A DNA stretch of 64,000 nucleotides from Armatimonadota bacterium (GCA_037443365.1 JBBIOM010000002.1:57268-121267); one strand, 5' to 3'. Positions 11,723-26,527 are shown, counted from the first letter of the stretch. The notes: generated by a model not told the origin, from the sequence alone. Numbers and translations are program-made.

Positions 11723-13087
11723 TCAGATCTTGCCCGCAGAGCTGGTCAGCCCCCGCATCTGAAGCAGCGGGCGCGGATCGGTGATCAGCCCCCCGAGGCC
11801 TGCGGCCTTCTCCTGGAGACCGAACGCGATCGCCATCAATTGCGTGAAGTAGAACGCCGGCATGGGCGGAAGCCCGGCCGCGCGTGCCGCCTCCTCCTGC
11901 CTGGCGTCGAGGTTGTTGTGGCACAGCGGGCAGGCCACCGCGAGCGCCTCGGCGCCGGCCGCCTGAGCGTCGCGCAGGATGCGGCCGGTCAACTCGACCA
12001 CGAGGTCCGGGCGCACTACCGCGTGGCCGGCCCCGCAGCACTCGGTCTTGTGCGACCAGGCCACCGGAACCCCGCCCAGCGCCGAGATCAACCTGTCCAT
12101 CTCCATCGGATTTTCGGGCCGCGCCGCACCCGTGACCGCGGGCGGCCGCGTGAGCAGGCAGCCGTAGTAGCAGGCCACCCGGAGCCCGCGCAGCGGGTTA
12201 CGCGCCTGCGCGCGGATTCCCTCGAGCCCGCCTTCGAGCAGCGTGTGCAGGATGTGCTGTACGCGCAGCCCTTCGGGCGACCGGTCAGGAGCGTCCACCT
12301 GCGCGTGACGCAGGCGGGAGAAGCAGGCGGCGCAGGGCGCCGTCACCGCGGTGTGCCCCGCCCGCGCCGCCAGGCTCAGGTTGGCCAGCGGCAGTTCCAG
12401 CGCGAGATCCGCGGAGGTCTGGTGTGCCGCCGTCGCCCCGCAGCACCGCCACGCTTCGATCTCACGCAGCCGCACCCCGAGGGCCGCGGCCACGCCGCGC
12501 GTCGAGGCATCGTATTCCCTGGCGCTGGCGTGCAGCGCGCAGCCGGGGTAGTAGGCGATCTCGCCCGGCTCCGCCCGCCGGCCCGAACGGCGGTTCGGGA
12601 GGCCGGGGATCAGCCGCAGCTTGCCGGCGCGGAACAGCCTGAGCGCGAACCTGCTCTGGCGGAGCGGCTGGCGCATCCGCATGTTCACCTCCAGGCCTAC
12701 CCCCGCCTCGAAGAGGCGCCCGAAGAGACGGATGCTGCGGATCGCCGCCTGCGTGAAGACCGGCGCCTCGGGCACGCGCGCCGGGATGCGCCGCGATGAA
12801 GCCACGATCCTGAGCGCGTCCATGACGCGGGCCACGTCGATCCCCTGGGGGCAGCGAGCCGTACAGGCCTGGCAGGAGGCGCACAGCCAGAAGGTGTTGC
12901 CCCGCAGCAGCCGATCGTCGAAGCCGAGCTGCAGGGCGCGCATGGCGGCATGAGGCGCCAGATCCATCTCGGCGGCCAGCGGGCATCCGCTCGTGCACAC
13001 CTTGCACTGGAAGCACAGTGCGGGGTCCTGGCCGCTCTCCTGCGCGACCTCCCGTGCCAGCATCGCGCGCGTCGCTGTCTGTTCCAT
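11723..13087 (-). CDS. Fused HdrC-HdrB-like subunit (module 1)
   Basis: The N-terminal half carries CFQCKVCTSGCP and CASCQACTARCPQGIDV (HdrC-like). The C-terminal half carries IAYYPGCAL...WRCCGAT and ACYYGC...TECCGAG...CPLCH (HdrB CCG domains). The start is at internal Met79 (MEQTATR) of ORF 11723..13321 and overlaps the mvhD stop (TGATG). Confidence 0.8.
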   Translation of the reverse strand: MEQTATRAMLAREVAQESGQDPALCFQCKVCTSGCPLAAEMDLAPHAAMRALQLGFDDRLLRGNTFWLCASCQACTARCPQGIDVARVMDALRIVASSRRIPARVPEAPVFTQAAIRSIRLFGRLFEAGVGLEVNMRMRQPLRQSRFALRLFRAGKLRLIPGLPNRRSGRRAEPGEIAYYPGCALHASAREYDASTRGVAAALGVRLREIEAWRCCGATAAHQTSADLALELPLANLSLAARAGHTAVTAPCAACFSRLRHAQVDAPDRSPEGLRVQHILHTLLEGGLEGIRAQARNPLRGLRVACYYGCLLTRPPAVTGAARPENPMEMDRLISALGGVPVAWSHKTECCGAGHAVVRPDLVVELTGRILRDAQAAGAEALAVACPLCHNNLDARQEEAARAAGLPPMPAFYFTQLMAIAFGLQEKAAGLGGLITDPRPLLQMRGLTSSAGKI

Positions 13088-13557
13088 CACGGGGCATCTC
13101 CGATCTTCGCCCGCCGAAGCGGCGTCGGTCCCAACGCCGTGATGCGCTCGGTCATCTCCCGGGCTATCTCGGCGAACCGCGGGCCCTGGGCCGACGACAG
13201 GTTGAACATCTCCAGGCGCGCCCCCCCGATGCCGGCCTCGTCGAGACGCTCCTTGAGGTACCGCACACGCGCCTTGGCATGGTAGTTGCCGGCCTGGTAG
13301 TGGCACTGCCCCTCCAGGCACCCGGCCACGAACACCCCGTCCGCTCCTGCCTCGAAGGCGCGCAGGATGTAGATCGCGTCAATCCCGCCGGTGCAGGGCA
13401 GCAGCACGACCTTCACATTGGGCGGATACGGCAGGCGCATCACGCCTGCAAGGTCTGCCGCCGCGTAGGCGCAGTAGAAGCAGCAGAAGGCCACTATCTC
13501 AACCGAGGCCTTGGACGCCTCCGATTGCGCTGGGGCCACGGTAAGGTCAGCCGACAC
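13087..13557 (-). CDS. mvhD: MvhD-like (methyl-viologen-reducing hydrogenase delta subunit family) 2Fe-2S protein
   Basis: IVAFCCFYCAYAAADLAG...VKVVLLPCTGGID...GADGVFVAGCLEGQCHY. Confidence 0.85.
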   Translation of the reverse strand: MSADLTVAPAQSEASKASVEIVAFCCFYCAYAAADLAGVMRLPYPPNVKVVLLPCTGGIDAIYILRAFEAGADGVFVAGCLEGQCHYQAGNYHAKARVRYLKERLDEAGIGGARLEMFNLSSAQGPRFAEIAREMTERITALGPTPLRRAKIGDAP

Positions 13558-14668
13558 GCGCCCCCTCCATCTCGCCCAGCAGCGCCTCGATCTTGGCGAT
13601 CATCTGATCGCGCGAGTAGTGCCCCAGGCTGAGCGCGCTGCCCGGGCACACAGACACGCAAAGGCCGCATCCCTGGCAGCGTGTGGGTTCGACGACGGCT
13701 ATTCCGTCGCCGTCGAACGATATGGCGTCGTAGGCGCAGACCCGGAGGCATGTCAGGCACGTCGTGCAGCGGTCGCGATCCACCTGGGTGACGACGCCTC
13801 CGACCTCCAGGCTATCACGCCACAGCAGGGTGCTTGCCCTGGCCGCCGATGCCAGGGACTGGGCGATCGCCTCGTCCAGCAACTTGGGGTAGTGCGCGCC
13901 GCCGCAGAGGAACAGGCCTTCGCTGGCGAAGTCCGCCGGGCGCAGCTTGACGTGGGCTTCCAGGAAGAAGCCGTCGGCCGACGCCGGCACCTTGAAGATC
14001 TCCGTCAGGCCGCAGGCGCCTTCTGAGGGCACCTGAGCCGGCGCCACCACCATCAGCCCGGCATCGAGCGTGATCTCCTCGCCGAGCGCCTGGTCCCGCA
14101 GGGTAACGCGGACGGCCTCTGGAGTGCGCGTGACTTGCGGGGGCTCATCCGGCGAGTGGCGGAACACCACGACCCCGGCCTGCCGCGCCTGCGTGAAGAG
14201 CACCTCGGATGTCCCGTAGGTCCGGATCTCGCGCGCGATGACCGTGACCGGGACCTCGGGATGGGCCCGTTTGAACGCCAGCGCGGCGGCCATGGACTGG
14301 GCGCAGCACGTGCGGCTGCAGTAGAAGGGCATGCGGTCCCAGGGGCCCGCGCAGAGCAACATGACCACCGAGGCCGGGACCTCAACGGGCGCCACAACCG
14401 GAGTGAGACGCGCCTCAAACTCTGAGAGCGTTATCACGCGCGCATCCTCGCCGACCCCGTAGGCGGCGGGCTTCCACTCCTGCAGGCCGGTGGCGATGAC
14501 GGTAACCCCGTGCGAGATGGTGTGCTCGCCGTCCGGGCCTGCCACGGTTGTCTCGAAGTTGCCGACCGTGCCGTGGGAGGACCCGATCGTGCAGCCGGTC
14601 AATACGCGCACGCGGGGATGGCTGGTTGCGCGTTCGGCCAGCTCCCTCAGCAACTCCGCGGGCGCGGT
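13547..14668 (-). CDS. C-terminal part of the giant HdrA-type protein (continuation of 14647..18717 after a frame change inside a G10 run)
   Basis: The frame reads TAPAELLRELAERATSHPRVRVL...FYCSRTCC...GLFLCGGAHYP...CTTCLTCLRVCAYDAI...CQGCGLCVSVCP. This is the expected continuation of the Rossmann domain that ends the upstream ORF at ...LGGRLRSPLLAWGGG. Confidence 0.7.
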   Translation of the reverse strand, partial: TAPAELLRELAERATSHPRVRVLTGCTIGSSHGTVGNFETTVAGPDGEHTISHGVTVIATGLQEWKPAAYGVGEDARVITLSEFEARLTPVVAPVEVPASVVMLLCAGPWDRMPFYCSRTCCAQSMAAALAFKRAHPEVPVTVIAREIRTYGTSEVLFTQARQAGVVVFRHSPDEPPQVTRTPEAVRVTLRDQALGEEITLDAGLMVVAPAQVPSEGACGLTEIFKVPASADGFFLEAHVKLRPADFASEGLFLCGGAHYPKLLDEAIAQSLASAARASTLLWRDSLEVGGVVTQVDRDRCTTCLTCLRVCAYDAISFDGDGIAVVEPTRCQGCGLCVSVCPGSALSLGHYSRDQMIAKIEALLGEMEGARVG

Positions 14669-17600
14669 CCCCCCCCCCAGGCCAGAAGCGGTGAACGCAG
14701 CCGGCCGCCAAGCGTCTGCGACCGCTCCACCAGCGTGACCGGGAATCCCTGCTCGGCCAGGTTGAGGCTGGCGGTCAGGCCCGCGACGCCTCCGCCGATG
14801 ACAAGCGCTTCGCGCCGCATCGGCACCAGCACCTTGTGAAGCGGCGACAGGCGCGCGGCGCGAGCGACGGCCGCCGTGATCAGGGCCTGCGCCTTCTCCG
14901 TGGCGCCAGCGGGATCATCGCGGTGAACCCAGCTACACTGATCGCGGATGTTGGCCATCTCGAACAGGTAGGGGTTGAGCCCGGCCTCGCGCAGCGTCTC
15001 GCGGAAGATGGGTTCGTGTGTGCGCGGGGTGCAGCTGGCCACGACCACCCTGTTCAGGTGCGCTTCGGCCACGGCCTCCTTGATGCGTATCAGGGTGTCG
15101 GCCGAGCAGGTGTAGAGGGACGTCTCGGCCAGGACCACGCCCGGCAACGTCTTGGCATGCGCGGCCAGGCCGGCCACGTCCACGACGCCGGCGATGTTCG
15201 ATCCGCAGTGGCACACGAACACCCCTATGCGCGGCTCCGGATCCAACAGCATCTCAGGAGGATAGACCTTGGCTGAGATCTGGGTCCCGCGGGCCGACCC
15301 GATGATGGCCATCGCCGCGGCGGCCGCGCCGCTGCCGTCCGTGACTGAATCTGGAATGTCCCTGGGTCCGCGGAATCCGCCGGCCACGAACACGCCGGGG
15401 CGGCTGGCCTGCATAGGCGCAGAGGGCACCGTGGCGGCGAACCCGTGCTCGTCGAGGGCTATGCGGGCGGCGCAGGCAAGGGCTGCGGCACCCTTGGGCG
15501 GGGTCAGGCCCACGGCCAGCACAACCAGGTCGGCCTGCTCCTCGCGCACTGCGCCGTTCTCCTCGACGCGGAAGTGAAGCGACCGGGTCTGTGCGTCTTC
15601 CCGAAGGGCCGCCACGCGCGTGCGCACGAACCGGATCTGTTCGCGGCTGGCCCGTTCGACGTAGGCGTCGAACCCCTTGCCGAAGGCGCGCATGTCCGCG
15701 TAGTAGACAGTGCATTCGGTGCCCGGAGCGTGCTCGCGGGCGAGTATCGCTTCCTTGGTTGCGTACATGCAGCACACCGAGGAGCAGTACCGGTTCTGCT
15801 GATCGCGCGAGCCCACGCACTGCAGGAACGCTATGCGCTTGGGTTCGGCGCCGTCGGAGGGACGAGCAACGTGTCCCTGCGTCGGCCCCGACGCCGACAG
15901 GAGCCGCTCGAACTGCGGGCCGGTGAGGACGTTCGGGAAGCGGCCCGCGCCGTAGGCGTCGGCAAGCGCGGCGTCGAACGGCTCGATGCCAGGAGCCAGG
16001 ATCACGGCGCCGACATTCAGCGTCTCCTCCCGTTCGGTCTCGGCATGGTTGATCGCCTCACGGCGGCATGCCTGCACGCAGGCCAGGCACTCGGCGCACA
16101 CGCCGCAGGACAGACAGCGCGCAGCCTCAAACCGCGCCTCTTCTTCGGTCAGCCCCTCGTCCACCTCGATGAACGAGGCGCGCCTGACCTCTGCCGGGAG
16201 TTCGTGAACGCCTTGGCGCGGCTGCGGCCGTATCTGACCGCGCGCCAGGCGGTCCTCGACCTCCTCCAGCGTGAGTCTGGCGACCTGGGGTTGCGGGTCG
16301 GCCTGCAGGAACGTTCCGCGCAGGTACGCGTGAATGCCTTGTGCGGCCCGGCGGCCCGCGGCGATGGCGTCCACGATGTAGGCCGTGCCAGTTGCCAGGT
16401 CCCCTCCGGCGAACAAACCGGGGTAGCCCGTGGACTGCGACTCCGCGTCCACCTGCAGCGCCCCCCAGGGCGTGGTTACGAGGCCGGGCAGATCAGAGAA
16501 GATCTCGTTCTGCGGGGCCAGGCCTATCGCGAAGACAATCGTGTCCGCCTCTATCAGGTGCTCGCTACCCTCGATGAGTTCGAGGTGCAGCCGCCGGTTC
16601 TCGTCGAAGTGCATGGAGCGCACCCCCCGGCACTCCATGCCCGCGGCGCGGCCGTCCCGTTCCACGACGCGGACGAACGACGTGGAGGGATACACCCGCA
16701 CGCCCTCTTCTTCGGCCGCTGCCACCTCCCAGGGGTGAGCCGGCATGGCCCCGCGCGCCTCGGGACATGCCAGGAGCACCTCGGCGCCGAGCCGCACGCA
16801 TGTTCGGGCCACATCGATGCCGACGTTGCCGCCTCCCAGCACGAGCACCCGCCGACCCAGAGAGACCGGTTGCCCCAGCCGGGCGTTCTGCAGAACGTCG
16901 GTGCTGACCAGGACGCCCGGCAGATCGGCCCCAGGGATGGGGAGCTTGCGGGCCCGGTGGGTTCCGGTGGCCAGGAAGATCGCGCTGTACCCTTGCGCGA
17001 ATAGCTCGCGCACGTGCGAGACGCGGCTGGAGGTGCGTATCTCGACGCCCAAGGCAGCGATTGCCGCGACCTCGCGCTCAACTATGCTCGCCGGCAACCT
17101 GTGCTCCGGGATGCCGACGCGCATCATGCCTCCCGGAACAGGCAGCGCCTCGTGGACGGTCACGCGGTAGCCCAGCACGGCCAGATCCCGGGCCGCCGTC
17201 AGCCCGGCGGGGCCTGAGCCTACAACCGCCACGCGTTCGGGGTGCGCCGGCTCCACCTGCGCCGGAGGCTCGCCCGGCCGCGCATATGCCCAGTCGGCCA
17301 CGAACCGCTTGAGCGCAGCGATGTTCACGGCCCCGTCAACGAGCGAACGCGAGCAGGCGTCCTCGCACCGGTGGTTGCACACTCGGCCGCAGATCCCGGG
17401 AAACGGGTTCTCCATCTGGATCACGCGGAACGCCTCTTCGTAGCGTCCCTGGGCCACCAGCGCCACGTACCCCTGCGCCCTCTGGTGAATGGGACAGGCG
17501 TCGCGGCAAGGTGCACGCCCCCGCTTGTCAATGGCGTATGCGCCTGGAACGGCCTGGGCATAGGAGCGGTATATGGCACTGCGCGCGGCCAGCCCCGCGT

Positions 17601-18717
17601 TGAACTCGCTGGGCACGCCCACAGGGCACGCCGCGGCGCAGTCACCGCAGCCTGTGCAGCGGAGCGGATCCACGAAGCGGGGGCGCTGCCGTATGGTGGC
17701 GGCGAAGTCCCCGGCGCTCCCCTCCAGACTCTCCAGCTCGGCCAGCGTGTGGATCTCGATGTTAGGATGCAGCCTGACACCCGACAGCTTGGGCGACAGG
17801 ATGCACATCGCGCAGTCGTTCGTGGGGAAGGTCTTGTCGAGCGTGGCCATGCGACCGCCTATGGCTGGGCCGCGCTCGACCAGGTGCACCTTGATGCCAG
17901 CGTCCGCCAGATCGAGCGCAGCCTGGATTCCCGCGATCCCGCCGCCGACCACCACGGCCGCGCCCACCACGCCGTCGCCGGTCTCCTCGGGAGGCCCGGC
18001 CGGTCTTGCCTCCTCGATCGCGGTGGCCACGCGGGCTGCCCCCCCGGGGGCCGGGCCTTCGTCGAGGTCGTCGCGCGCGGCCGCGGGCACTCGCACCATG
18101 CGGTCCAGCAGCTCGATCTGATCGGCCAGCCGCTGGCGGCAGCGCACAAGGATGTGCCGCTGATCATCGGTGAGATCGCCGGCCGTTCCCGCCAGCATCG
18201 CCTCCAGGTAGCCGGCCACCCTGGCGGCGGGAGACCGCAGGTCGTACGTGGCCACCGCCTGCATCTGGGTCAGTCGGGCTCGCACCTGCGCCATGCGCGA
18301 TTCGATGAGGTCCACTAGACCGGCCATTATGGGATACCCGATCTCCCAGTCCAGCGATATCAACCTGCGCAGAACCGGGCCGCTGATGGCCACCAGAACC
18401 GTGGGCTCGACGCTGACCGCAGACATCGTCAGCACAAACGGCGGCACAAGGGCAGACCATCCGAGGCTCTCGCCCGCCCCGAGCACGGACACGACGACCG
18501 ACCTGGGCAGGTCCCCTTCCTGCTCCGGTGTTCGCATCTCCAGGGCCACCCGGCCCGTGTGGATCACGAAGAAGTCGCGGGCCTCGTCCCCTTCAGAGAA
18601 GATGCGCTCCCCCGGCTGGAAGGAGACAACGGTGCCCAGCGAGGCCACCAGGTCTCGGGCCGATGGGCTAAGCCCTGCGAGAAGGGCGCACCGGCCCATG
18701 GCTTCACGCTGGATCAT
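14647..18717 (-). CDS. Giant multi-domain HdrA-type flavo-FeS protein: cNMP-binding-like domain + His-less DHp-like domain + HdrA unit with inserted GltD/NfnB-like NAD(P)H module + start of a second HdrA unit
   Basis: Residues 1-130 are CRP/FNR-type (SFQPGERIFSEGDEA...GRVALEM). Residues ~140-210 are DHp-like (ATYDLRSPAARVAGYLEAML). Residues 251 onward are HdrA (VVVGGGIAGIQAALDLADAG...GGRMATLDKTFPTNDCAMC). Residues ~403-800 are glutamate-synthase-small-subunit-like (CGRVCNHRCEDAC; RVAVVGSGPAGLTAARDL; VLVLGGGNVGIDVA; FAGGD). Then FLQCVGSRD..YCSSVCCMY, followed by a second unit with IGVFVCHCGSNIAG...ALVIGGGVAGLTASL. Confidence 0.8.
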   Translation of the reverse strand: MIQREAMGRCALLAGLSPSARDLVASLGTVVSFQPGERIFSEGDEARDFFVIHTGRVALEMRTPEQEGDLPRSVVVSVLGAGESLGWSALVPPFVLTMSAVSVEPTVLVAISGPVLRRLISLDWEIGYPIMAGLVDLIESRMAQVRARLTQMQAVATYDLRSPAARVAGYLEAMLAGTAGDLTDDQRHILVRCRQRLADQIELLDRMVRVPAAARDDLDEGPAPGGAARVATAIEEARPAGPPEETGDGVVGAAVVVGGGIAGIQAALDLADAGIKVHLVERGPAIGGRMATLDKTFPTNDCAMCILSPKLSGVRLHPNIEIHTLAELESLEGSAGDFAATIRQRPRFVDPLRCTGCGDCAAACPVGVPSEFNAGLAARSAIYRSYAQAVPGAYAIDKRGRAPCRDACPIHQRAQGYVALVAQGRYEEAFRVIQMENPFPGICGRVCNHRCEDACSRSLVDGAVNIAALKRFVADWAYARPGEPPAQVEPAHPERVAVVGSGPAGLTAARDLAVLGYRVTVHEALPVPGGMMRVGIPEHRLPASIVEREVAAIAALGVEIRTSSRVSHVRELFAQGYSAIFLATGTHRARKLPIPGADLPGVLVSTDVLQNARLGQPVSLGRRVLVLGGGNVGIDVARTCVRLGAEVLLACPEARGAMPAHPWEVAAAEEEGVRVYPSTSFVRVVERDGRAAGMECRGVRSMHFDENRRLHLELIEGSEHLIEADTIVFAIGLAPQNEIFSDLPGLVTTPWGALQVDAESQSTGYPGLFAGGDLATGTAYIVDAIAAGRRAAQGIHAYLRGTFLQADPQPQVARLTLEEVEDRLARGQIRPQPRQGVHELPAEVRRASFIEVDEGLTEEEARFEAARCLSCGVCAECLACVQACRREAINHAETEREETLNVGAVILAPGIEPFDAALADAYGAGRFPNVLTGPQFERLLSASGPTQGHVARPSDGAEPKRIAFLQCVGSRDQQNRYCSSVCCMYATKEAILAREHAPGTECTVYYADMRAFGKGFDAYVERASREQIRFVRTRVAALREDAQTRSLHFRVEENGAVREEQADLVVLAVGLTPPKGAAALACAARIALDEHGFAATVPSAPMQASRPGVFVAGGFRGPRDIPDSVTDGSGAAAAAMAIIGSARGTQISAKVYPPEMLLDPEPRIGVFVCHCGSNIAGVVDVAGLAAHAKTLPGVVLAETSLYTCSADTLIRIKEAVAEAHLNRVVVASCTPRTHEPIFRETLREAGLNPYLFEMANIRDQCSWVHRDDPAGATEKAQALITAAVARAARLSPLHKVLVPMRREALVIGGGVAGLTASLNLAEQGFPVTLVERSQTLGGRLRSPLLAWGGGPRPRSC
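14669..14678 (-). repeat. G10 homopolymer (C10 on plus strand) at the frame break inside the HdrA-type gene
   Basis: The ORF-track translations of all three frames cross the same TGGGGGGGGGGAC tract. One extra G, or a -1 slip, joins the two ORFs. Confidence 0.9.
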
Positions 18718-19900
18718 CGGCAGATGTCTCCCCCTGCCCCACCGGCGGCGAATCGCCGGGGGGGAGTTCGACGGCGAGGGCCCGGGGTATCGAGAGCGTG
18801 AAAACCGCGCCGCTTGTCTCTCCTGGAGGCGGGCTCTCTGCCCAGATCTGACCGCGGTGGGCCTCGACGATCCTCTTCACGAGGGACAAACCCAGCCCCA
18901 ACCCCTTCGACTGGGCCATCTGCCCCCTGTAGAACTCGTCGAAGATGCGGGGCAGATCGGACGGCGCTATCCCAGCGCCGTTGTCGCGCACCTGCACCCG
19001 GATCTCATCTCCCCGGTCCAGGGCGGACACGACGACTTCTCCGCCGGAGGGCGTAAACTTCACGGCGTTGTCCAGGAGGTTGGTAATGGCTTCCTGCATG
19101 CGCAGCGGCGCCATCAAGAGCGACGGCATGCCCCGAGGCACCAGCGCCTCCAGGCGCACTCCCTTTGCCCGGGCCGCGGCCGCCACGTTCTCCACGGCCT
19201 TCTCAATGATATCCTGCATGGATGCGACGCCCAGCTCCGCGGAGAAGTCGCCGGTCTCGATCCGGGAGACCCGCAGAAGGCTGTTGATGAGCTCGATCAG
19301 CTCCTGCACACGGATGCTGCACCGCTCCAACATCTCTCGCTGCCGGTCAGCGACCTCCCCGGCGTAGCCGCCCAGCATCACCTGAAGGTAGCTCTCCACG
19401 GCCGCCAGGGGCGCCTTCAGTTCGTGTGACACCATTGCGATGACGAAGCCCAGCTTGGCCCTCGCCTCCTGGAGGCGGCTTCCCACCAGCTGGGCCAGGC
19501 CGCGCATCAGGAGGGCCCCGGCCCGAGGGTCCTCGGCGATCAGTCGTTCCAGCATCTCGCGCTCGAATGCCACGACCGTCGTGGGCTGAATTGCCACGGC
19601 CGACATGGTGCGCGTGTGAGGAGGCACGAGCGCGGACCAGCCGAAGCAGTCGGGGGGACCAAGCACCGCGGCGAATGTGCGCCGCTCGCCCGCCTCGGAC
19701 CTGCCGATCTGCAGGTCCATCTCGAGGGCGACGCGTCCCCGCTCAATGATGCACAGGTGTGTGGCGCCCTCCCCCTCCTCGAAGATCCGCTGCCCGGGCT
19801 CGAACGATCGCTGCTCACCCATAGCCGCCAGGCGGCGCAGAAGCGCCACGGGCAGGTCCTTGAACAGGGACGAGCGCTCCAGGGCCGCCTGGCTGGCCAT
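18704..19900 (-). CDS. Sensor histidine kinase with N-terminal cNMP-binding-like domain (no TM segments seen)
   Basis: CRP/FNR-type N-terminus (SFEPGQRIFEEGEGA...GRVALEM), H-box AMVSHELKAPL (His159), N-box NLLDNAVKF, and G-boxes VRDNGAGI and GLGLGLSLV. Confidence 0.85.
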   Translation of the reverse strand: MASQAALERSSLFKDLPVALLRRLAAMGEQRSFEPGQRIFEEGEGATHLCIIERGRVALEMDLQIGRSEAGERRTFAAVLGPPDCFGWSALVPPHTRTMSAVAIQPTTVVAFEREMLERLIAEDPRAGALLMRGLAQLVGSRLQEARAKLGFVIAMVSHELKAPLAAVESYLQVMLGGYAGEVADRQREMLERCSIRVQELIELINSLLRVSRIETGDFSAELGVASMQDIIEKAVENVAAAARAKGVRLEALVPRGMPSLLMAPLRMQEAITNLLDNAVKFTPSGGEVVVSALDRGDEIRVQVRDNGAGIAPSDLPRIFDEFYRGQMAQSKGLGLGLSLVKRIVEAHRGQIWAESPPPGETSGAVFTLSIPRALAVELPPGDSPPVGQGETSADDPA

Positions 19901-19901
19901 G

Positions 19902-20786
19902 CTACTCCACTCCCGGAGCCGCCAGGCCGCCGGCCTCGAGCACGCGCGGCAGCAGGTGATCCCATCCCATGGCCATCAGGTGGATGCCCTGGCACAGCGG
20001 CCGCAGTTCCCGGATCAGCCCGGCGGCCACGCCCACGCTGGCCTCCTGGCGGTCCTTGGCTGTCTCCATGATCTCGATGAGGCGGCCGGGAACGTGCACG
20101 CCCGGGACATTCCGGTTCATGAACCGGGCCATACCGGCGGACTTCAGCATGATGATGCCTGCCAGTACCGGCTTGCCCACGGGCCGGGCGGCTTCCATGA
20201 AGCGGGCGAAGCCGTCCGGGTCGAAGATGGCCTGGGTCTGGAAGAAGTCGGCGCCGGCCTGAGCCTTCTTCGCCATCTTGAGCAGTTGGGGCTCAACCGG
20301 ATCCGCGCCCGGGCTGACGACCGCGCCCAGGAGGAACTCGGGGGCGCCGTCCAGTTGCTTCCCCGCCATGTCCTGCCCCTGCTCCAGCCCGACCGCGGCG
20401 CGCAGCAGGGAAACCGAGTCCAGGTCGAACACGGGCTTGGCCTGCGGGTGGTCACCAAGCTTCACGTGGTCTCCCGTAAGGCACAGCACGTTCTCGATGC
20501 CCAGCGCCGCCGCGCTCAGGAGATCCGACTGCAGCGCAATCCGGTTTCTGTCGCGGCAGGTGACCTGGAAGATGGGCTCGAGGCCCCGCTCCCGAAGCAT
20601 GTGGCAGAGCACCAGCGAACCCAGGCGCATCACCGAGCTCTGCTGGTCGGTGACGTTGAACGCCTGCACCCGTCCCCGCAGGCGCTCGGCTTCCTGAATG
20701 GCTCCTGCCACGTTGATTCCCTTGGGCGGGGAGGCCTCGGCCGTCACCACGAACCGGCCTCCGGTCAGGGCCTCTCGCAGGGTCAT
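19902..20786 (-). CDS. metF: Methylenetetrahydrofolate reductase, paralogue 1
   Basis: GRFVVTAEASPPKG..., QVTCRDRNRIALQSDLL and LCLTGDH. The ATG overlaps the stop of the receiver gene upstream (ATGA). Confidence 0.85.
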   Translation of the reverse strand: MTLREALTGGRFVVTAEASPPKGINVAGAIQEAERLRGRVQAFNVTDQQSSVMRLGSLVLCHMLRERGLEPIFQVTCRDRNRIALQSDLLSAAALGIENVLCLTGDHVKLGDHPQAKPVFDLDSVSLLRAAVGLEQGQDMAGKQLDGAPEFLLGAVVSPGADPVEPQLLKMAKKAQAGADFFQTQAIFDPDGFARFMEAARPVGKPVLAGIIMLKSAGMARFMNRNVPGVHVPGRLIEIMETAKDRQEASVGVAAGLIRELRPLCQGIHLMAMGWDHLLPRVLEAGGLAAPGVE

Positions 20787-21208
20787 GGCGTCTCAGAGCC
20801 TCCCTCGGACCGGCCGCGGCGTGCCAGCAGCTTCTCCACCCTTTCTAGGAGCAGGCCCGGAGGAGCGGGCTTGTCGAGATAGTCCTCTGCCTCCAGGCTG
20901 AGCCCTGCGCTGACCGGAAGGCCGGACTCCCCGTGGCGCTCGGCGAACGAGGTGAGCATGATGACAGGCACCGAGGAGAGCACCGGGTCGCGCTTCAGCT
21001 CCTCGCAGACCGTGAAGCCGTCCTTGAACGGCATGATCACGTCCAGGATGATCAGGTCGGGCGGATCCTCGCGCGCCAGACGCAGCCCCTCAACGCCATC
21101 CAGCGCCGCGGTCACCCGATAGTTGCGGCTCTCCAGCACCGTCCGGGTGGTCTCGACCAGGTCCGGGTCATCGTCAATGAGCAGAATGCGCTCCTGGGTC
21201 TTAGCCAA
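20783..21208 (-). CDS. Stand-alone receiver (CheY-like) response regulator 2, no output domain
   Basis: ILLIDDDPDL, DLIILDVIMPFKDG, VIMLTS and DYLDKP. The start is proposed at in-frame TTG 21208 (MAKTQERILL), 7-8 nt after a GGAGAGG SD-like site that lies within the last codons of the upstream gene. The longer ORF (to 21310) overlaps receiver 1. Confidence 0.8.
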   Translation of the reverse strand: MAKTQERILLIDDDPDLVETTRTVLESRNYRVTAALDGVEGLRLAREDPPDLIILDVIMPFKDGFTVCEELKRDPVLSSVPVIMLTSFAERHGESGLPVSAGLSLEAEDYLDKPAPPGLLLERVEKLLARRGRSEGGSETP

Positions 21209-21212
21209 GGTC

Positions 21213-21629
21213 CTACACCTCTCCGGGGTTGCCCGATCGCTTGCCGCGCCTGTCCAGCACCTTGCGGACACGATGCAGCAGATCCACCGGCCGCACCGGC
21301 TTCTCGACATAGTCGTCCACGTCCATGGCCAGCCCGGCCTCGAGTTCGTACCTGCGCCGGCTGGCCTCTTCGCCCACGGCAGAGAAGATCACAATCGGAA
21401 TGGTCGCCCAGCGGGGTTTCTCCTTCAGGGCCCGCACCACGGCGTATCCGTCCATCCTGGGCATCATCATGTCCAGGATGATCAGGTCGGGGGCCTCCCG
21501 GCGTATGCACTCGAGCCCCTGCTCGCCGTCGGGGGCGGTCTCGACACTGTAGCCAGCAGCCTCCAGTACCATCCGGACCGCCACGGTGATATCCTGATCG
21601 TCGTCCACCACCAGGATCCGAGGTTGCAT
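21213..21629 (-). CDS. Stand-alone receiver (CheY-like) response regulator 1, no output domain
   Basis: MQPRILVVDDDQDI, DLIILDMMMPRMDG, IVIFSA and DYVEKP. Confidence 0.85.
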   Translation of the reverse strand: MQPRILVVDDDQDITVAVRMVLEAAGYSVETAPDGEQGLECIRREAPDLIILDMMMPRMDGYAVVRALKEKPRWATIPIVIFSAVGEEASRRRYELEAGLAMDVDDYVEKPVRPVDLLHRVRKVLDRRGKRSGNPGEV

Positions 21630-21661: not shown

Positions 21662-22579
21662 TCATATCAGCGGCCGAGGCAGAAGCCCGGCCCTCTCCGC
21701 CAGAACGGGGACGACCTCTTCCCACCCCACGGCCATGATGTGCACACCCCGCACGCCTGGTATGTCGCGCACGGCGTCAATGATGTCCACCGCGATGGCC
21801 ATTCCCTCGGCCTTGGGATCCGAGGCATCTTCCATGCGCGAGACCACGCCGTCAGGAACGACAATGCCGGACACGTAGTCCCGCATGTAGCGCGCCATAC
21901 CAACCGATTTCAGGGGCACGATTCCGGCCAGGATCGCCGTCTTCTCGTGCAGCCCCCGCGCCCTGACCTGGGCCATCCAGCGCGCGAAGATCTCGAGATC
22001 ATATACGGCCTGCGTCTGTATGAAGCTGGCGCCCGCGCGCACCTTCTTCGCCAGGCGCACCACCCGGTATGGAAGCGGGTCGGCGAACGGGTTGGCCGCG
22101 GCCCCGATGAACATCGAAACGTCGCCGGTGAACTCATCGCCACTCTGGAACCTGCGCGCATCGCGCATGCCGGCCAGCACCTGTATCAGCTGGATCGAGT
22201 CGAGATCGAAGACGTTCTTGGCCCCCGGGTGGTTGCCGAACTGCTGGTGGTCCCCGCTCAGGCACAGGAAGTTGCGCACTCCGGCCCCCACGGCACCCAA
22301 CACGTCCGACTGCAGCGCCAGGCGGTTCCGGTCGCGGCACGTCATCTGCATCACGGGGTCCAGACCCATGCGGCGCAGATGGATCGCGCAGGCCAGGCTG
22401 GACATGCGCACGATCGCGGTCTGGTTGTCGGTCAGATTGATGGCGTCACAGCAGTGCCGGAGGATCTCGGCCTTGCGCTCCACGACGCCCAGGTTCGTGC
22501 CCTTGGGCGGGCCCAGCTCGGCGGTCACAGCGAACCGCCCAGCGGCCAGCACGACCTCCAGGTTGCTGCCCGCGGGCAT
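21662..22579 (-). CDS. metF: Methylenetetrahydrofolate reductase, paralogue 2
   Basis: GRFAVTAELGPPKG, QMTCRDRNRLALQSDVL and LCLSGDH. Confidence 0.85.
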   Translation of the reverse strand: MPAGSNLEVVLAAGRFAVTAELGPPKGTNLGVVERKAEILRHCCDAINLTDNQTAIVRMSSLACAIHLRRMGLDPVMQMTCRDRNRLALQSDVLGAVGAGVRNFLCLSGDHQQFGNHPGAKNVFDLDSIQLIQVLAGMRDARRFQSGDEFTGDVSMFIGAAANPFADPLPYRVVRLAKKVRAGASFIQTQAVYDLEIFARWMAQVRARGLHEKTAILAGIVPLKSVGMARYMRDYVSGIVVPDGVVSRMEDASDPKAEGMAIAVDIIDAVRDIPGVRGVHIMAVGWEEVVPVLAERAGLLPRPLI

Positions 22580-22584
22580 GGCCG

Positions 22585-23262
22585 CTACACCTCCTCCTCG
22601 ACCATCTCGCGCAGGTCAGGCCGCGTGATGCGGCGCGGCCCGCCGGAGTGGCTCGCCTTCCAGTCCCGGGCCGGGATGATCTCCTCGAGCTGGTCCAGGC
22701 GTCCCTGCGCTTCCAGGCGCTCGTGGATCAGAACCCAGGCGCAGGGATTGTCTACCGACAGCTCGCAGTGCCCATCCTGGGGCCCTCCGCAGGGGCCGTT
22801 CAGGAGGCTCTTGGCGCACCTGGCCACCGGACAGATCCCTCCGGTGCGGTGCAGGAGGCAATCACCGCAGGCCATGCACCGCTCACCCCATATCCCAGGG
22901 GCCTCGGTCAGCCCCATGAAGGCGGTGTTGAGCCCAGGCAGCGCGATCACACCTCCGTAGCGCTCCCCTATTCCCTGCACACCCACCCCGCATCCCAGGG
23001 ACAGCACGGCATCGGCCCGGCGCACCGCCTCGCCGACCTGATCCAGGAACTCCCACTCGCACTGCCGCTGAACCACGGCCTCCCCGATCTCGACCTCTGG
23101 GCCCAGCACCGAGCGCAGCGCGGTGGCCACCACGGCGACTTCCTTCTCTCCCCCGGCAAAGCAGACAGTCGTGCACGTTCCGCAGCCGAGCACCAGGAGG
23201 CGGCGGAACCCGCTCACCATCTGCCGGATCTCGTCCAGGGGCTTCTGTTGTGCAACAATCAC
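22585..23262 (-). CDS. metV: MetV (MTHFR C-terminal-domain-like FeS/zinc-ribbon protein), copy 1
   Basis: MIVAQQKPLDEI..LVLGCGTCTTVCFAGGEKEV; CMACGDCLLHRTGGICPVARCAKSLLNGPCGG. Confidence 0.8.
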   Translation of the reverse strand: MIVAQQKPLDEIRQMVSGFRRLLVLGCGTCTTVCFAGGEKEVAVVATALRSVLGPEVEIGEAVVQRQCEWEFLDQVGEAVRRADAVLSLGCGVGVQGIGERYGGVIALPGLNTAFMGLTEAPGIWGERCMACGDCLLHRTGGICPVARCAKSLLNGPCGGPQDGHCELSVDNPCAWVLIHERLEAQGRLDQLEEIIPARDWKASHSGGPRRITRPDLREMVEEEV

Positions 23263-23278: not shown

Positions 23279-24148
23279 CTATACGGCCAGCGCTTGGATC
23301 ACCGGCCGGACCTCCACCAGGTGCCTTCCGAACCCCAAGCGTCGCGGACTCGCTCCCAGCGCGAGCGCGGTCAGTTGAGTGAAGAACACCACCGGGAGGG
23401 GACGCTCGAACCCCGCCCTGGCGGACGTGGCGCCCTGCAGCAGATCCAGGTTGAGCTGGCACAGCGGACAGGCAGTGGCCAAGCAGTCGGCGCCCGCTCG
23501 GTGGGCCTGCTCCAAGATGCGGCCAACCAGATCCGCGGCAAGATCGGGCGCCGTGGCGGCCAGGCTGGCGCCACAGCACCAGGTCCTCCCCTGCCACTCG
23601 ACCACGTCGGCCCCACACGATCCGAGCACGCGCTCCATGATCCTCGGGTTCTCCGCATCGTCTATCCCACCACACCTGGGCACGCGCACGAGCAGGCAGC
23701 CGTAATAGCACGCCACCTTCACTCCTGCCAGAGACCGCCGGACCCGCGCGGAGAGGTCGATCTCGTCCAGGACCGAGAGCAGGTGCCGCACCCGGACCCC
23801 ACCGCCGTAGGCGAGGCCCGCCTGCGCGGCTGCCTGCGCCGCCTCCGCCGAGGCGCCAAGCTCGTGCTCTGCCTGAACCAGCCTGTGGTGACAGGCGGCG
23901 CACGCGGTCAGCACGTCGGTCCCGCGGGCCTGGGCAATCGCTAGGTTGCGGGCGGGCAGCAGGACCGCCAGGTCCGCGTCCACGAAGTGGGCCGAGCTGG
24001 CGCCGCAGCAGTTCCAATCCGGCAGTTCCTTCACCTGCATCCCCAGGGCGCGCAGCGTCTCACGCACGGAATCCAGATAGGGGGAGCCGGTGCTCTGCAA
24101 TGAACAGCCCGGGTACAAGGCGAGCGGCCTGGCCGGCGCATTCTGCAT
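23279..24148 (-). CDS. hdrB: HdrB-like (CCG domains), module 2
   Basis: LALYPGCSL...PDWNCCGAS; ACYYGC...RTWCCGAS...CPLCQ. The start is at internal Met72 (MQNAPARP) of ORF 23279..24361 and overlaps the hdrC stop (TGATG). Confidence 0.8.
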   Translation of the reverse strand: MQNAPARPLALYPGCSLQSTGSPYLDSVRETLRALGMQVKELPDWNCCGASSAHFVDADLAVLLPARNLAIAQARGTDVLTACAACHHRLVQAEHELGASAEAAQAAAQAGLAYGGGVRVRHLLSVLDEIDLSARVRRSLAGVKVACYYGCLLVRVPRCGGIDDAENPRIMERVLGSCGADVVEWQGRTWCCGASLAATAPDLAADLVGRILEQAHRAGADCLATACPLCQLNLDLLQGATSARAGFERPLPVVFFTQLTALALGASPRRLGFGRHLVEVRPVIQALAV

Positions 24149-24720
24149 CAGCGCCCACCCCCCTTGCCGGTCGTCCGGAACAGGCGGCGGACCTCTTTGC
24201 GCCCCCGCACGAGGTGGGGCAGCAGCGCAAGCCGGCGGTGCCGCACCAGCGCCAGGCCCGTGGCCAGGTCCTGCCGGAGGCGTCCCTGCTGCAGGCTGTG
24301 CCCGGCCGAGAGCAGACCCTCGTGGGCCCGACCGAACATCCACACGGTGCGCAGGAACCACCGGTGGAATCCGAGGATGCCCGCCCTGGGGGGAGGCCCT
24401 CCCCTGGCCAGGGAGGCCTGCCGCACCGCGTCCATCACCCGGGCGACGTCAATCCCGTTCGGGCACCGGATGGCGCAGGTCTCGCACGCCACGCACAGGT
24501 AGGGCGCCGCGGCTTCGAGGACACGCTCCCGGAGGCCCAACTGCACCGCCTTCATCAGGCGGCTCGGAAGGATGTCCATCGCATGAGCCAGCGGACAGCT
24601 CCCGGTGCAGACCCCGCACCCGTAGCAGAGCCGCACGCGCTCCCCGCTGGCCGCCTCTATGGCCAGCGGCCAGGAGGAATCCCGCGGGGACGGCTGCGTG
24701 GGCGCCTCATGCTGGGGCAT
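24148..24720 (-). CDS. hdrC: HdrC-like (2x[4Fe-4S]), module 2
   Basis: CYGCGVCTGSCP and CVACETCAIRCPNGIDV. Confidence 0.8.
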   Translation of the reverse strand: MPQHEAPTQPSPRDSSWPLAIEAASGERVRLCYGCGVCTGSCPLAHAMDILPSRLMKAVQLGLRERVLEAAAPYLCVACETCAIRCPNGIDVARVMDAVRQASLARGGPPPRAGILGFHRWFLRTVWMFGRAHEGLLSAGHSLQQGRLRQDLATGLALVRHRRLALLPHLVRGRKEVRRLFRTTGKGGGR

Positions 24721-26527
24721 GCGATGCCACCTTCAGGGAGTCGTGCGGCGCATTGAGAAGCGCGCTCATCCTGTGCCAATCGACCGGGGCCAGCGAGGCA
24801 ACCTGGATTGACTCGGGATCGAGGCCGAGCGTCCCTGCCAGCGCGCGGGCACGGTCCACCATCCTGCGGGCCGAGGCCGGCCCCACCAGGTGCTCACAGC
24901 TCCGATCGTAGCAGCCGCAGAGAAGGACACGCCGCGCCCCGGCAGCCAGCGGCCGCACGCAGTGAATCGGCTCCAGCCGCCCCAGGCAGGGCACCGGGAC
25001 AACCAGCACGGACGCGGGGTAGGACAGGCGCAGCCGTCCCATGGCCCCAAGGGTGGGAACCGCGGAGTTGACGCAGGCAAGCACGACCGTCACGGCCCCG
25101 CCCAGAAAGGGGCCCTGCATCAGCGCGTCGATCTCGGCCAGGAGCCGGCGGTTGGGGCTCTCCGCGACCTGGATCGCTCCGGCAGGACAGGCCGCTGCGC
25201 ACACCCCGCACCCCTGGCATGCTGCCGGCAGCACCCGCATGCTTCCGCCCAGAGCCGTGGTCACGGCCTGGTGAGGGCACAGACGCAGGCATGTCAGGCA
25301 GAAGGCACACTTCTCGGTGTCGATGCACGCACGCCCCGCGATCGCCAGCGTGCCCGGAGCAGCCACGGCGAGCGCGGCCATGGCCGCTGCCTCTCCCTGG
25401 CGTGCCGCCTGGACGGCGGTGTACGGGCCGCGCGCGCCGCCGATCAGGAACACGCCGTTTCGCTCGGTCGCTATGGGCTCCAGGAAGATGCGCTCCCTGG
25501 GTGCCCAACCGCCCTGCCGGGGCGCCACGCCGAGTGCGTCCGCCAGTCTGCGCGCGCCCTGGCGAGTGGCCGCGGCGCCGCCAAGTATCGCATCCACGGT
25601 CTCGGTGACAGGGCCCAGCCCAGGCACGTCGGCGGTGACCACCCATTCGCCGTCAACCTCGCAGACCTGGGGTGGTGCGGCCTCCACGCGGATGAACGTG
25701 ACTCCCTGCCCCCGCGCCTCGGTGTAGAGTTCCTCCAATCCGGGTCCGGCAACTCCCATGTCGCGAAAGAGCACGAGCACGCGGCACCCGCAGTCCCGCA
25801 CCAGGTGCAGGGCGGCCTGCAGCGTTGACTCGGTCTGTGAGGGCCAGGGATCGCCGTCCAGCAGAAAGGCCACCCTCCTGCCGAACGGGAACTCGGGCAG
25901 ACCGGGAGATGCGTCGCCGGCCGCGATCACGGCGCCCACCGTGTGGCGCTCGCTTCCCTCACCGGTCCGGAGCGTGGCCTCGAACTCGCCCGCCTGCCCA
26001 ACAAGGCGCTCGAGCGTTCCCGCGGCCGGCACCACCTCGCAGCCCAGCTCCTCGAGGCGCGCCGCCGCTGCCCCGGAGCCCGGCCCGGTTCCAACCAGCA
26101 GCACCCGCCCCGTGGACGTGATCTCGGAGCAGGCCGCAGGAGGTTGGCCGGCGGCGACGCCGGCCGCGCCCGCGGCCACCATCCTCTGCGCCTTGGCCGT
26201 GGCCTGGTCAGGTCGCGGGTGAACCCATGCACACCCTTCCCTCACATCTACAAGACAGGCACGGTGTCCTGCTACCCCTGCACCTTCGAGCACTTCCGCG
26301 AGCGCCTGCGTCGCGGACGGGATCCCGCATGCCGCCACCACCAGGCCGTCGGATGCGGTCTCGCGAAGCCAGGCAGCGACGCGCATCCGGCCCGGGCCTG
26401 AGCAGAAGTCGTGCGTGATCAGGGCCGAGGCGAATCCTGGGGCCGAGGCGATGCGCTCAGGCGCAATGCGGCAGCACAGCGTACCGCCGCATGTGCATAC
26501 GACCAGGGCCGTCCGCGCGGCGCTCAT
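24707..26527 (-). CDS. HdrA-related protein (N-terminal Cys domain + degenerate Rossmann + 2x[4Fe-4S]) fused to a C-terminal MvhD-like domain
   Basis: ALVVCTCGGTL...LVVAACGIPS..CAWVH parallels VFVCHCGSNI...VVVASCTPR..CSWVH of the giant HdrA. CAFCLTCLRLCP and CQGCGVCAAACP are present. The C-terminus VVLACVNSA...VPVPCLGRL...LLCGCYDRSCEH is MvhD-like. The start is at internal Met30 and overlaps the upstream stop (ATGA). Confidence 0.65.
   Translation of the reverse strand: MSAARTALVVCTCGGTLCCRIAPERIASAPGFASALITHDFCSGPGRMRVAAWLRETASDGLVVAACGIPSATQALAEVLEGAGVAGHRACLVDVREGCAWVHPRPDQATAKAQRMVAAGAAGVAAGQPPAACSEITSTGRVLLVGTGPGSGAAAARLEELGCEVVPAAGTLERLVGQAGEFEATLRTGEGSERHTVGAVIAAGDASPGLPEFPFGRRVAFLLDGDPWPSQTESTLQAALHLVRDCGCRVLVLFRDMGVAGPGLEELYTEARGQGVTFIRVEAAPPQVCEVDGEWVVTADVPGLGPVTETVDAILGGAAATRQGARRLADALGVAPRQGGWAPRERIFLEPIATERNGVFLIGGARGPYTAVQAARQGEAAAMAALAVAAPGTLAIAGRACIDTEKCAFCLTCLRLCPHQAVTTALGGSMRVLPAACQGCGVCAAACPAGAIQVAESPNRRLLAEIDALMQGPFLGGAVTVVLACVNSAVPTLGAMGRLRLSYPASVLVVPVPCLGRLEPIHCVRPLAAGARRVLLCGCYDRSCEHLVGPASARRMVDRARALAGTLGLDPESIQVASLAPVDWHRMSALLNAPHDSLKVASHAPA

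Follow-up and report, generated by a model that had tools for sequence, protein, structure and literature searches.

Two-component signaling genes with output-less receivers are linked to a methylene-tetrahydrofolate reductase paralogue in diverse uncultured bacteria

Background

Of all parts of the Wood-Ljungdahl pathway, the methylene-tetrahydrofolate (methylene-THF) reductase step is energetically the least understood, notably as regards which electron partner the Hdr-linked enzyme uses, in which direction it runs and how it is controlled. We analyzed a locus for this step in a stretch of 64,000 nucleotides (nt) from an Armatimonadota bacterium (GCA_037443365.1 JBBIOM010000002.1:57268-121267; hereafter 'the window', with a G+C content of about 69%), where the genes of a histidine kinase and of two receivers, REC1 and REC2, stand among genes for two MetF reductases (MetF1 and MetF2), a MetV subunit and Hdr proteins. 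The same signaling module recurs in uncultured bacteria that carry the labels of five or more major groups, which makes it probable that a central enzyme of carbon fixation is governed by a phosphorylation switch dedicated to it.

The closest described enzyme is the MetFV-HdrABC-MvhD methylene-THF reductase of Moorella thermoacetica (Mock et al. 2014, as cited in PMC8515935 and PMC5736913). As in Moorella, the window holds together, within a Wood-Ljungdahl cluster, genes for MetF, MetV, an HdrA-like flavoprotein, MvhD and HdrB/C with CCG and iron-sulfur domains (Pfam and gene calls). Unlike Moorella, it has two MetF, two MetV and two Hdr-like sets as well as the embedded kinase and two receivers, and its HdrA is a fusion of about 1720 amino acids (aa) with GltD/NfnB-like domains and a kinase-derived N-terminus.

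The arrangement has been glimpsed before. Sewell et al. (2017; PMC5736913) reported, in one sentence, that a putative phoBR flanks metF_1 in the single-cell Chloroflexi genome DscP3; in that genome the MetF flanked by the two-component system is nearer to Moorella MetF and the other copy is nearer to the MetF of Acetobacterium woodii. The DscP3 metF_1 locus is evidently the same module as that of the window, but the phoBR label does not fit a module of two receivers without a DNA-binding domain and a kinase with a sensor of the cyclic nucleotide monophosphate (cNMP) fold. The breadth of the module across phyla, the REC1 and REC2 orthogroups, their fusions and the fusion to HdrA are not in that account. 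Full-text literature searches for MTHFR, MetF or MetV with signaling partners returned no study of the module except the sentence of Sewell et al. 2017, and papers on acetogen clusters and on the classification of MTHFR types made no mention of signaling genes.

On the signaling side, the window's module resembles HK853-RR468 of Thermotoga maritima, a HisKA kinase with a stand-alone OmpR/PhoB-like receiver; RR468 and REC1 compare at a TM-score of about 0.8-0.9 and 33-35% identity. It differs from that pair in having two paralogous receivers in a fixed order, coupled genomically to a metabolic enzyme, and in REC1 itself, where helix alpha-4 is invariant and the loop after it is some five residues longer. 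One kinase with two receivers recalls branched systems of the DivJ/PleC-DivK/PleD kind, and the kinase-derived DHp hairpin without ATPase function at the HdrA N-terminus recalls Spo0B and ChpT; unlike all of these, the window's DHp module is fused to a redox enzyme, keeps a sensor and has lost the histidine, and there is no terminal output regulator. The sensors share their fold with CRP/FNR-type effector domains (GlxR, Mycobacterium tuberculosis CRP), from which they differ in altered Glu72 and Arg82 positions and in being fused to DHp, not to a helix-turn-helix. The components are ordinary members of their families. What is new is an output-less-receiver two-component system hard-wired to a central one-carbon (C1) enzyme, an arrangement that is essentially unstudied. 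It is relevant to the bioenergetics of acetogens and the Wood-Ljungdahl pathway as well as to two-component signaling, within the limits set by an inferred mechanism and by the earlier glimpse.

Results and discussion

A kinase and two receivers packed among metF, metV and hdr genes

All genes of the locus lie on the minus strand, in the order metVb, metF2, REC1, REC2, metF1, kinase, giant HdrA-like gene, mvhD, hdrCB (coordinates are those of the window).

22585-23262 (-): metVb, MetV subunit of 225 aa, directly upstream of metF2 (gap 5 nt); Pfam DUF5981/MTHFR_C, 6e-36
21662-22579 (-): metF2, 305 aa; Pfam MTHFR, 4.9e-36
21213-21629 (-): REC1, 138 aa; Pfam Response_reg only, 2.3e-26; phospho-Asp D53, codon 21471-21473
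20783-21208 (-): REC2, 141 aa by gene call, TTG start; Pfam Response_reg only, 5.2e-23; phospho-Asp D56, codon 21041-21043
19902-20786 (-): metF1, 294 aa, of the type usually preceded by metV; Pfam MTHFR, 2e-37
18704-19900 (-): histidine kinase, soluble, cNMP_binding + HisKA + HATPase_c (Pfam); H159, codon 19424-19426
18073-18717 (-): N-terminal ~215 residues of the HdrA-like protein, paralogue of the kinase sensor and DHp (BLASTP, AlphaFold2); Tyr158, codon 18244-18246
13547-18717 (-): giant HdrA/GltD-like flavo-iron-sulfur protein, called as 1356 + 368 aa; Pfam Fer4_20, Pyr_redox_2, FAD/NAD domains, Fer4
13087-13557 (-): mvhD, 156 aa; FlpD in gene calls, NCBIfam VhuD-like, 3.9e-49
11723-13087 (-): hdrCB, fused, 454 aa; Pfam Fer4_17/Fer4_8 + CCG

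A preliminary description of this stretch, generated from the sequence alone, had given this order together with the DDD, LIILD and K-P motifs of the receivers and an ATGA overlap, all of which Pfam and a reading of the sequence found in place. Its mvhD is present too, as the 156-aa FlpD gene at 13087-13557; the 368-aa open reading frame (ORF) at 13547-14653 encodes the C-terminal end of the HdrA-like protein. The two HdrA-like ORFs, 14647-18717 (1356 aa) and 13547-14653 (368 aa), share positions 14647-14653, with a run of ten G at 14669-14678 just upstream of this overlap. In relatives, gene calls give a single HdrA-like ORF of 1705-1726 aa without the homopolymer, and the split in the window probably reflects either an indel in the assembly or a frameshift of recent date.

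The signaling genes are intact and tightly packed with the metF and hdr genes. The REC2 stop overlaps the metF1 ATG (ATGA), the kinase ATG starts 1 nt after the metF1 stop, and the end of the kinase gene overlaps the HdrA-like ATG by 14 nt. These genes belong to a run of 18 consecutive same-strand genes from metVa, a second metV paralogue, to folD, with gaps of -14 to +32 nt. A simple consensus scan, whose patterns may not suit this phylum, found no promoter-like or terminator-like sites between 18.7 and 23.3 kb. Scan and packing are consistent with one transcript but no proof of it, the scan itself backing co-transcription weakly.

A HisKA-type kinase with a non-canonical cNMP-fold sensor

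The kinase matches the Pfam families cNMP_binding (E 2.2e-16), HisKA (E 5.8e-12) and HATPase_c (E 4.2e-29). H159, in SHELKAPL, and the residues of the N, G1, F and G2 boxes (N274/N278, D306/G308/G310, F320/F323 and G333/G335/G337) are invariant among 22 homologues. By its H-box DHp and its ATP-binding boxes, then, it is predicted to be a HisKA-type sensor histidine kinase. It had been described as soluble, and hydropathy agrees: the maximum Kyte-Doolittle 19-residue mean is 1.42, located in the H-box helix, and no transmembrane segment is apparent, which rules out a membrane sensor kinase in the window.

The preliminary description also spoke of a cNMP-domain kinase. That assignment holds for the fold but not for the canonical ligand-contacting residues. 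In CRP, Glu72 contacts the ribose of the nucleotide and Arg82 the phosphate. Across 77 members of the sensor family, aligned to an E. coli CRP reference entered by hand, the Glu72 equivalent is Trp in 70 and the Arg82 equivalent is mostly Leu or Phe; the Arg82 position itself is Arg in the window kinase and Leu in its HdrA copy. The sensor thus has a cNMP-like fold whose pocket, in most members, lacks the canonical Glu and Arg; it is doubtful that it binds cAMP or cGMP, and given the non-canonical pocket its ligand is probably neither. Sensing by an iron-sulfur cluster or heme was considered and rejected, the alignment having no conserved Cys/His pattern.

The sensor also differs between loci. 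Most kinases carry the cNMP fold; a 6TM_PilS-like domain replaces it in two loci (L093 1484-2920 and L094 6553-8004), and precomputed Pfam annotation places both 6TM and cNMP domains in kinases of about 620 aa from Bipolaricaulia and Fraserbacteria (such as the large kinase L010 10001-11878). Some Anaerolineae and Dehalococcoidia loci have two kinases side by side. Throughout this variation, MetF2-REC1-REC2 is constant.

In Dehalococcoidia, free homologues of the kinase cNMP-fold domain, of 160-170 aa, are encoded near the module (L011 2492-2986, L021, L027, L062 and L063), so the sensor fold occurs free, kinase-fused and HdrA-fused.

REC1 and REC2 are paired single-domain receivers

REC1 has the motifs VVDDDQD, DLIILD and EKP, and REC2 has LIDDDPD, DLIILD and DKP; the two are 41% identical in the window. 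Among 50 orthologues of each, conservation is complete at D9/D10/D11, D53 and K110-P111 of REC1 and at D12/D13/D14, D56, T86 and K113-P114 of REC2. The switch residue of REC1 is a mix of Thr and Ser (S83 in the window), that of REC2 is always Thr. The absence of a DNA-binding or other output domain, claimed in the preliminary description, is supported by Pfam, where Response_reg is the only family above threshold in either protein. The same holds more widely: 117 of the 120 best REC1 homologues are 129-154 aa long, and all 120 carry PF00072 alone. With a receiver fold and acidic pocket and no output domain, both proteins are classed from sequence as single-domain, CheY-like receivers. The NCBIfam models for PhoB, OmpR and RpaB match the receiver halves only, at no more than 100 bits against cut-offs of about 300, and a PhoB/PhoR identity was rejected for want of Trans_reg_C in the receivers and because the kinase has no transmembrane segment and a cNMP-fold sensor, whereas PhoB ends in a winged-helix DNA-binding domain and PhoR is a membrane-anchored protein with a PAS domain. 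The solved folds nearest to REC1 are the receivers of RpaA, RR468, PhoB and YycF, which fits a HisKA-type partner kinase.

Of 50 pairs of adjacent receivers, 49 begin with the one closest to REC1 of the window and end with the one closest to its REC2. REC1 and REC2 are two old orthogroups kept in fixed order. REC1 orthologues are 54-65% identical between phyla, unusually high for receivers, and E87, S90 and R92-R93-Y94-E95-L96-E97 are at least 94% conserved in the 50 orthologues. In an AlphaFold2 model of REC1 ((beta-alpha)5 fold, pLDDT 89.6) this stretch is helix alpha-4, residues 87-98; aligned by eye, the loop that follows is about five residues longer than that of PhoB. The alpha-4 region of REC2 is variable. 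Helix alpha-4 is part of the alpha4-beta5-alpha5 face, the usual phosphorylation-dependent contact surface of receivers, and its invariance in REC1 points to a conserved partner.

Natural fusions tie the signaling proteins to one another. Six Dehalococcoidia loci encode kinase::REC1 hybrids of 521-528 aa, with a C-terminal REC1-type receiver that carries the alpha-4 motif and a free REC2 after it, and one locus (L009) encodes REC1::REC2 as a single protein of 259 aa. These Rosetta-stone fusions argue for REC1 as a cognate partner of the kinase, and for joint action of REC1 and REC2.

Tandem REC1-type domains, each with an RRYELETG helix, occur in the metagenomic proteins P0251, P0253 and P0259, some of which are fragments.

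The linkage is conserved far beyond the window

We examined the linkage from three query directions: kinase, MetF2 and REC1. The closest relatives of the window in a species-level genome collection are labeled Armatimonadota or 'Candidatus Nitrosymbiomonas sp.'. Kinase homologues of 58-79% identity lie in the same gene order on other Armatimonadota-like contigs. At 40-48% identity, on contigs with kinases labeled Chloroflexota or Bipolaricaulia, the order is kinase - MetF (305-307 aa) - REC - REC, with a MetV - MetF (276-295 aa) pair adjoining the module on either side and with HdrA-like, MvhD, HdrCB, FolD, Fhs or NiFe-hydrogenase genes usually close by. All seven contexts of kinase homologues over this range (40-79% identity) show kinase-MetF2-REC(-REC) beside MetV/MetF1, with Hdr genes in most.

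A broader survey scanned one genome per species with a kinase alignment and annotated the resulting 80 loci by phmmer with the window's proteins. At 63 of these loci the kinase scores 190 bits or more; 53 of them carry a MetF no more than 5 kb away, 59 carry at least one MetF, MetV or Hdr gene, and two of the remaining four lie on contigs too short for a verdict. MetF or MetV was found at none of 16 loci with weaker kinase matches, which cover the HisKA-ATPase part only (Omnitrophota, Planctomycetota and others). The positive loci are labeled Armatimonadota, Dehalococcoidia, Anaerolineae, Chloroflexota, Candidatus Acetothermia, Candidatus Fraserbacteria, Syntrophobacter/Syntrophobacteraceae and 'delta proteobacterium'. 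From the MetF2 side, three of three loci picked by MetF2 similarity and long contig only have MetV - kinase - MetF2 - REC - REC, two of them with a 6TM-sensor kinase, and a locus picked from the REC1 side (L095) has the same module.

The linkage of signaling and metF genes is therefore far beyond chance. An unrelated, independently acquired insertion, adjacent to the metF genes by accident, is barely credible: nothing speaks for it beyond the general abundance and mobility of two-component genes, and against it stand the occurrence of the arrangement in 53-59 of 63 species genomes versus none of 16 controls, the fixed REC1-REC2 order, the translational coupling in the window and in relatives, and the lack of internal promoter-like or terminator-like sites in the scan. 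The preliminary description had proposed a survey of neighborhoods in related genomes, with absence of the linkage to count against it; from all three query directions the linkage proved conserved, across at least five labeled major groups. It had also called the signaling genes inserted between duplicated metF genes, which the survey contradicts. The order kinase-MetF2-REC1-REC2-(MetV)-MetF1 is widespread and apparently the ancestral arrangement, and the two MetFs are old paralogues of separate clades.

In separate neighbor-joining trees, the Syntrophobacteraceae kinase and MetF2 both group with two Chloroflexota loci (L029 and L035), which suggests that the module moves as a unit. All carriers found are metagenome-assembled genomes or assemblies from single cells, and this accounts for the missing biochemistry. 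Many uncultured anaerobes, several from subsurface, groundwater or sediment, thus keep a specific MetF paralogue coupled to a kinase and two output-less receivers.

Two old MetF paralogues, both probably active

The metF1 and metF2 products are 43% identical. In a rough neighbor-joining tree, MetFs adjacent to kinase or REC1 form, across phyla, a separate clade that includes MetF2, and MetV-preceded MetFs form another. The best 120 homologues of MetF2 are 65-92% identical to it and nearly all exactly 305 aa long; those labeled Dehalococcoidia or Anaerolineae are 65-69% identical. Residues conserved specifically in the MetF2 type are R139-D140, R175, R248, E258-G259 and a C-terminal P-R-P. Equivalents of E. 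coli E28, D120, Q183 and H273 (relative to an E. coli sequence entered by hand) are present in both MetF1 and MetF2, the Asp and Gln also aligning to Thermus MTHFR, and those of E28, D120 and Q183 are at least 90% conserved in the MetF1 group (41 sequences) and in the MetF2 group (47 sequences). With catalytic equivalents kept in both groups, both MetFs are probably active, and a degenerate MetF paralogue was ruled out.

These data bear on the suggestion that MetF2 is an input, binding methylene- or methyl-THF or a reductant and reporting C1-folate or redox status to the kinase as a co-sensor, with the output of the receivers elsewhere. MetF2 does lie between the kinase and the receivers in most phyla (kinase-MetF2-REC1 flanks 26 of 47 MetF2-type genes), and it stays constant while the sensor of the kinase is interchangeable between cNMP fold, 6TM and both. 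We nevertheless consider a co-sensor distinctly unlikely, given that MetF2 retains every catalytic-residue equivalent checked, is usually accompanied by its own MetV, and is 65-69% identical across phyla versus about 40% for the kinase, as would be expected of a working enzyme in a complex.

The best NCBIfam match of both window MetFs is the model for a bifunctional homocysteine methyltransferase/MTHFR (YitJ-like). A PDB sequence search with MetF2 returned classical MTHFRs only, with weak E-values, and no MetFV or Hdr-MetFV structure. The 305-aa MetF2 and a REC1 with the SRRRYELE helix are recognizable annotation markers for genes now labeled simply MTHFR, or PhoB/OmpR/CheY-like.

In five hybrid-kinase loci (L023, L032, L039, L045 and L059), a neighboring minus-strand MetF-like ORF of 665-773 aa is reminiscent of the YitJ-like bifunctional model.

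A kinase-derived module at the N-terminus of the HdrA-like protein

The N-terminus of the HdrA-like protein is 39% identical over 242 residues to kinase residues 1-235 (BLASTP, E 3e-47). The alignment takes in the cNMP-fold domain, the linking helix and the complete DHp hairpin with its H-box; the ATPase domain is absent. The cNMP_binding family of Pfam matches at E 1.6e-12, AlphaFold2 models a CNB barrel (28-112) followed by a helical hairpin (124-175/184-219), and the best Foldseek matches of the CNB part are GlxR and CRP. In a neighbor-joining tree the HdrA module branches as sister to the kinases of Armatimonadota, which marks it as a duplicate of the kinase sensor and DHp that arose in this lineage and became fused to HdrA. 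DHp hairpins are dimerization and receiver-docking elements. Placed on the flavoenzyme, the HdrA DHp-like module is a plausible physical bridge between the signaling proteins and the enzyme in the window's lineage, and a kinase-derived sensor and DHp on the HdrA-like subunit is a new argument for post-translational action.

The position of the phospho-accepting histidine in the HdrA module is His in five of seven Armatimonadota orthologues, Phe in one locus (L006) and Tyr in the window. The Tyr158 codon is TAC at 18244-18246, as it also is in the Logan assembly L002 (maybe the same sample); the relatives with His use CAT or CAC.

The preliminary description called the system a phosphorelay. 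A true His-Asp-His-Asp relay would make the HdrA DHp-like module a phosphotransferase between REC1 and REC2, in the manner of Spo0B or ChpT, with the enzyme itself phosphorylated. A DHp hairpin without ATPase domain belongs to the Spo0B/ChpT class of architecture, two receivers are at hand, and most of the Armatimonadota orthologues keep the histidine. A relay is still very unlikely: the histidine is lost in the window and in L006, the HdrA module is absent from every other phylum with kinase-MetF2-REC-REC, and Pfam detects no Hpt domain in the genes of the cluster. 'Phosphorelay' thus goes beyond what the evidence gives, one kinase and two receivers.

How the module may act on the reductase

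The best-supported reading is of a dedicated, branched two-component module, an ancestral and co-inherited part of a two-paralogue MetF/MetV/Hdr set, whose receivers act on the enzyme complex directly. A dedicated, co-inherited module we consider very likely; direct action, and with it the reading as a whole, we put at about even. The kinase would sense a cytoplasmic ligand through its CRP-like cNMP-fold domain and autophosphorylate on H159, and the phosphate would pass to D53 of REC1 and D56 of REC2. Since the receivers have no output domain, action through protein contacts is indicated, with REC1 most likely using its invariant alpha-4 face and probably pairing with REC2. Their target would be the surrounding reductase machinery, that is MetF2/MetV and the HdrA-like complex, and the likely effect would be on how active the MTHFR step is, or on whether the MetF2-based or the MetF1-based form is used. 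In the window's lineage, the HdrA-borne sensor and DHp could sense the same ligand, and could dock or dimerize with the kinase or the receivers. The hypothesis is concrete: C1 flux would be controlled quickly and post-translationally, or one form of the reductase exchanged for the other.

A more specific version is possible, and we advance it tentatively, as it seems to us to fall clearly short of even. The receivers would be regulatory subunits, phospho-REC1 (alone or with REC2) docking via alpha-4 on MetF2-MetV or on the HdrA DHp module and switching the complex between MetF2 and MetF1 forms or between the reductive and oxidative directions, or gating electron bifurcation. If this is so, a two-component system directly controls a flavin-based electron-bifurcating Wood-Ljungdahl enzyme, not via transcription, and in relatives that keep the histidine the enzyme itself takes part in phosphotransfer.

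Several observations weigh against direct action. The contact of the receivers with MetF2, MetV or HdrA is one that we infer, and co-regulation without physical contact can also yield conserved synteny. Two of the 63 stronger loci (L040 and L047) have ample flanking sequence and no MetF, MetV or Hdr gene nearby. The HdrA module is confined to Armatimonadota; restricted to one lineage and variable at its histidine, it cannot be a general mechanism. No REC-MetF or REC-MetV fusion was found among the 120 best REC1 homologues. Finally, the kinase::REC1 hybrids keep the invariant alpha-4 although their neighboring MetFs are of MetF1 or long (665-773 aa) type, so alpha-4 need not bind MetF2 specifically.

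The last two points would be expected if the receivers act indirectly, as a phosphate sink or as connectors to an unlinked partner (a transcription factor, a second kinase or a protease adaptor), the synteny reflecting co-expression only. Single-domain receivers such as DivK, CpdR and Spo0F often act on other signaling proteins, and the loci with two kinases of different sensors have the look of multi-input networks. We regard indirect action as a serious alternative, if a somewhat unlikely one. No other partner recurs in about 70 loci, where the constant neighbors are only MetF2, MetV, MetF1 and Hdr genes; transcriptional control needs no embedded module, a DNA-binding GAF-HisKA_3/REC-GerE system being already present upstream of the CODH/ACS genes; and the sensor and DHp of the kinase are fused to HdrA itself.

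The wider Wood-Ljungdahl cluster

The module is set in a larger same-strand Wood-Ljungdahl cluster, with cooC-cooS-acsB, acsCD, RACo, acsE, a folC-like gene, metVa, fhs and the first Hdr-like set toward one end and, past hdrCB, fchA, folD, nuoEF-like genes and a selenocysteine fdhA. The genes listed in the preliminary description are all there, though its list was incomplete, a second metV and a second Hdr-like set lying upstream.

29429-30118 (-): metVa, second MetV paralogue, 229 aa, heading the 18-gene run, 4-nt overlap with fhs; Pfam DUF5981, 6.1e-36
23279-27702 (-): Hdr-like set upstream of metVb: hdrA-like (392 aa), Fer4+MvhD fusion (606 aa), hdrC (190 aa) and hdrB (289 aa); Pfam and gene calls

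With two MetV and two Hdr-like sets, the cluster could encode two different MetFV-Hdr assemblies. A search of the whole window at Rfam gathering thresholds found no RNA elements.

A conventional two-component pair is encoded at 44152-46586 (-), just upstream of an aldolase-like gene and cooC-cooS-acsB.

44805-46586 (-): GAF-HisKA_3 kinase, upstream of the CODH/ACS genes
44152-44886 (-): NarL/LuxR-type regulator, REC + GerE, upstream of the CODH/ACS genes

This pair is the obvious candidate for a transcriptional regulator of the Wood-Ljungdahl cluster. With it available for transcription, the embedded module is free for another regulatory layer.

In other phyla, genes for the small and large subunits of a NiFe-hydrogenase adjoin the module (L010 7135-10089, L011 5473-8412 and L095 3618-6078). 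In L010 and L011 the hydrogenase genes are followed by a HycI protease gene, which in L095 stands at a greater distance downstream (12567-13043). The adjoining hydrogenase genes, in modules of Bipolaricaulia and Dehalococcoidia type, hint at an H2-linked (Mvh-like) reductase complex.

The FdhA gene of the window (5015-8170, -) has an in-frame TGA at 6770-6772, in the motif CARV-U-HAPSVAG. The TGA stands at the classical selenocysteine site, so this is one gene for a selenocysteine-containing FdhA rather than two.

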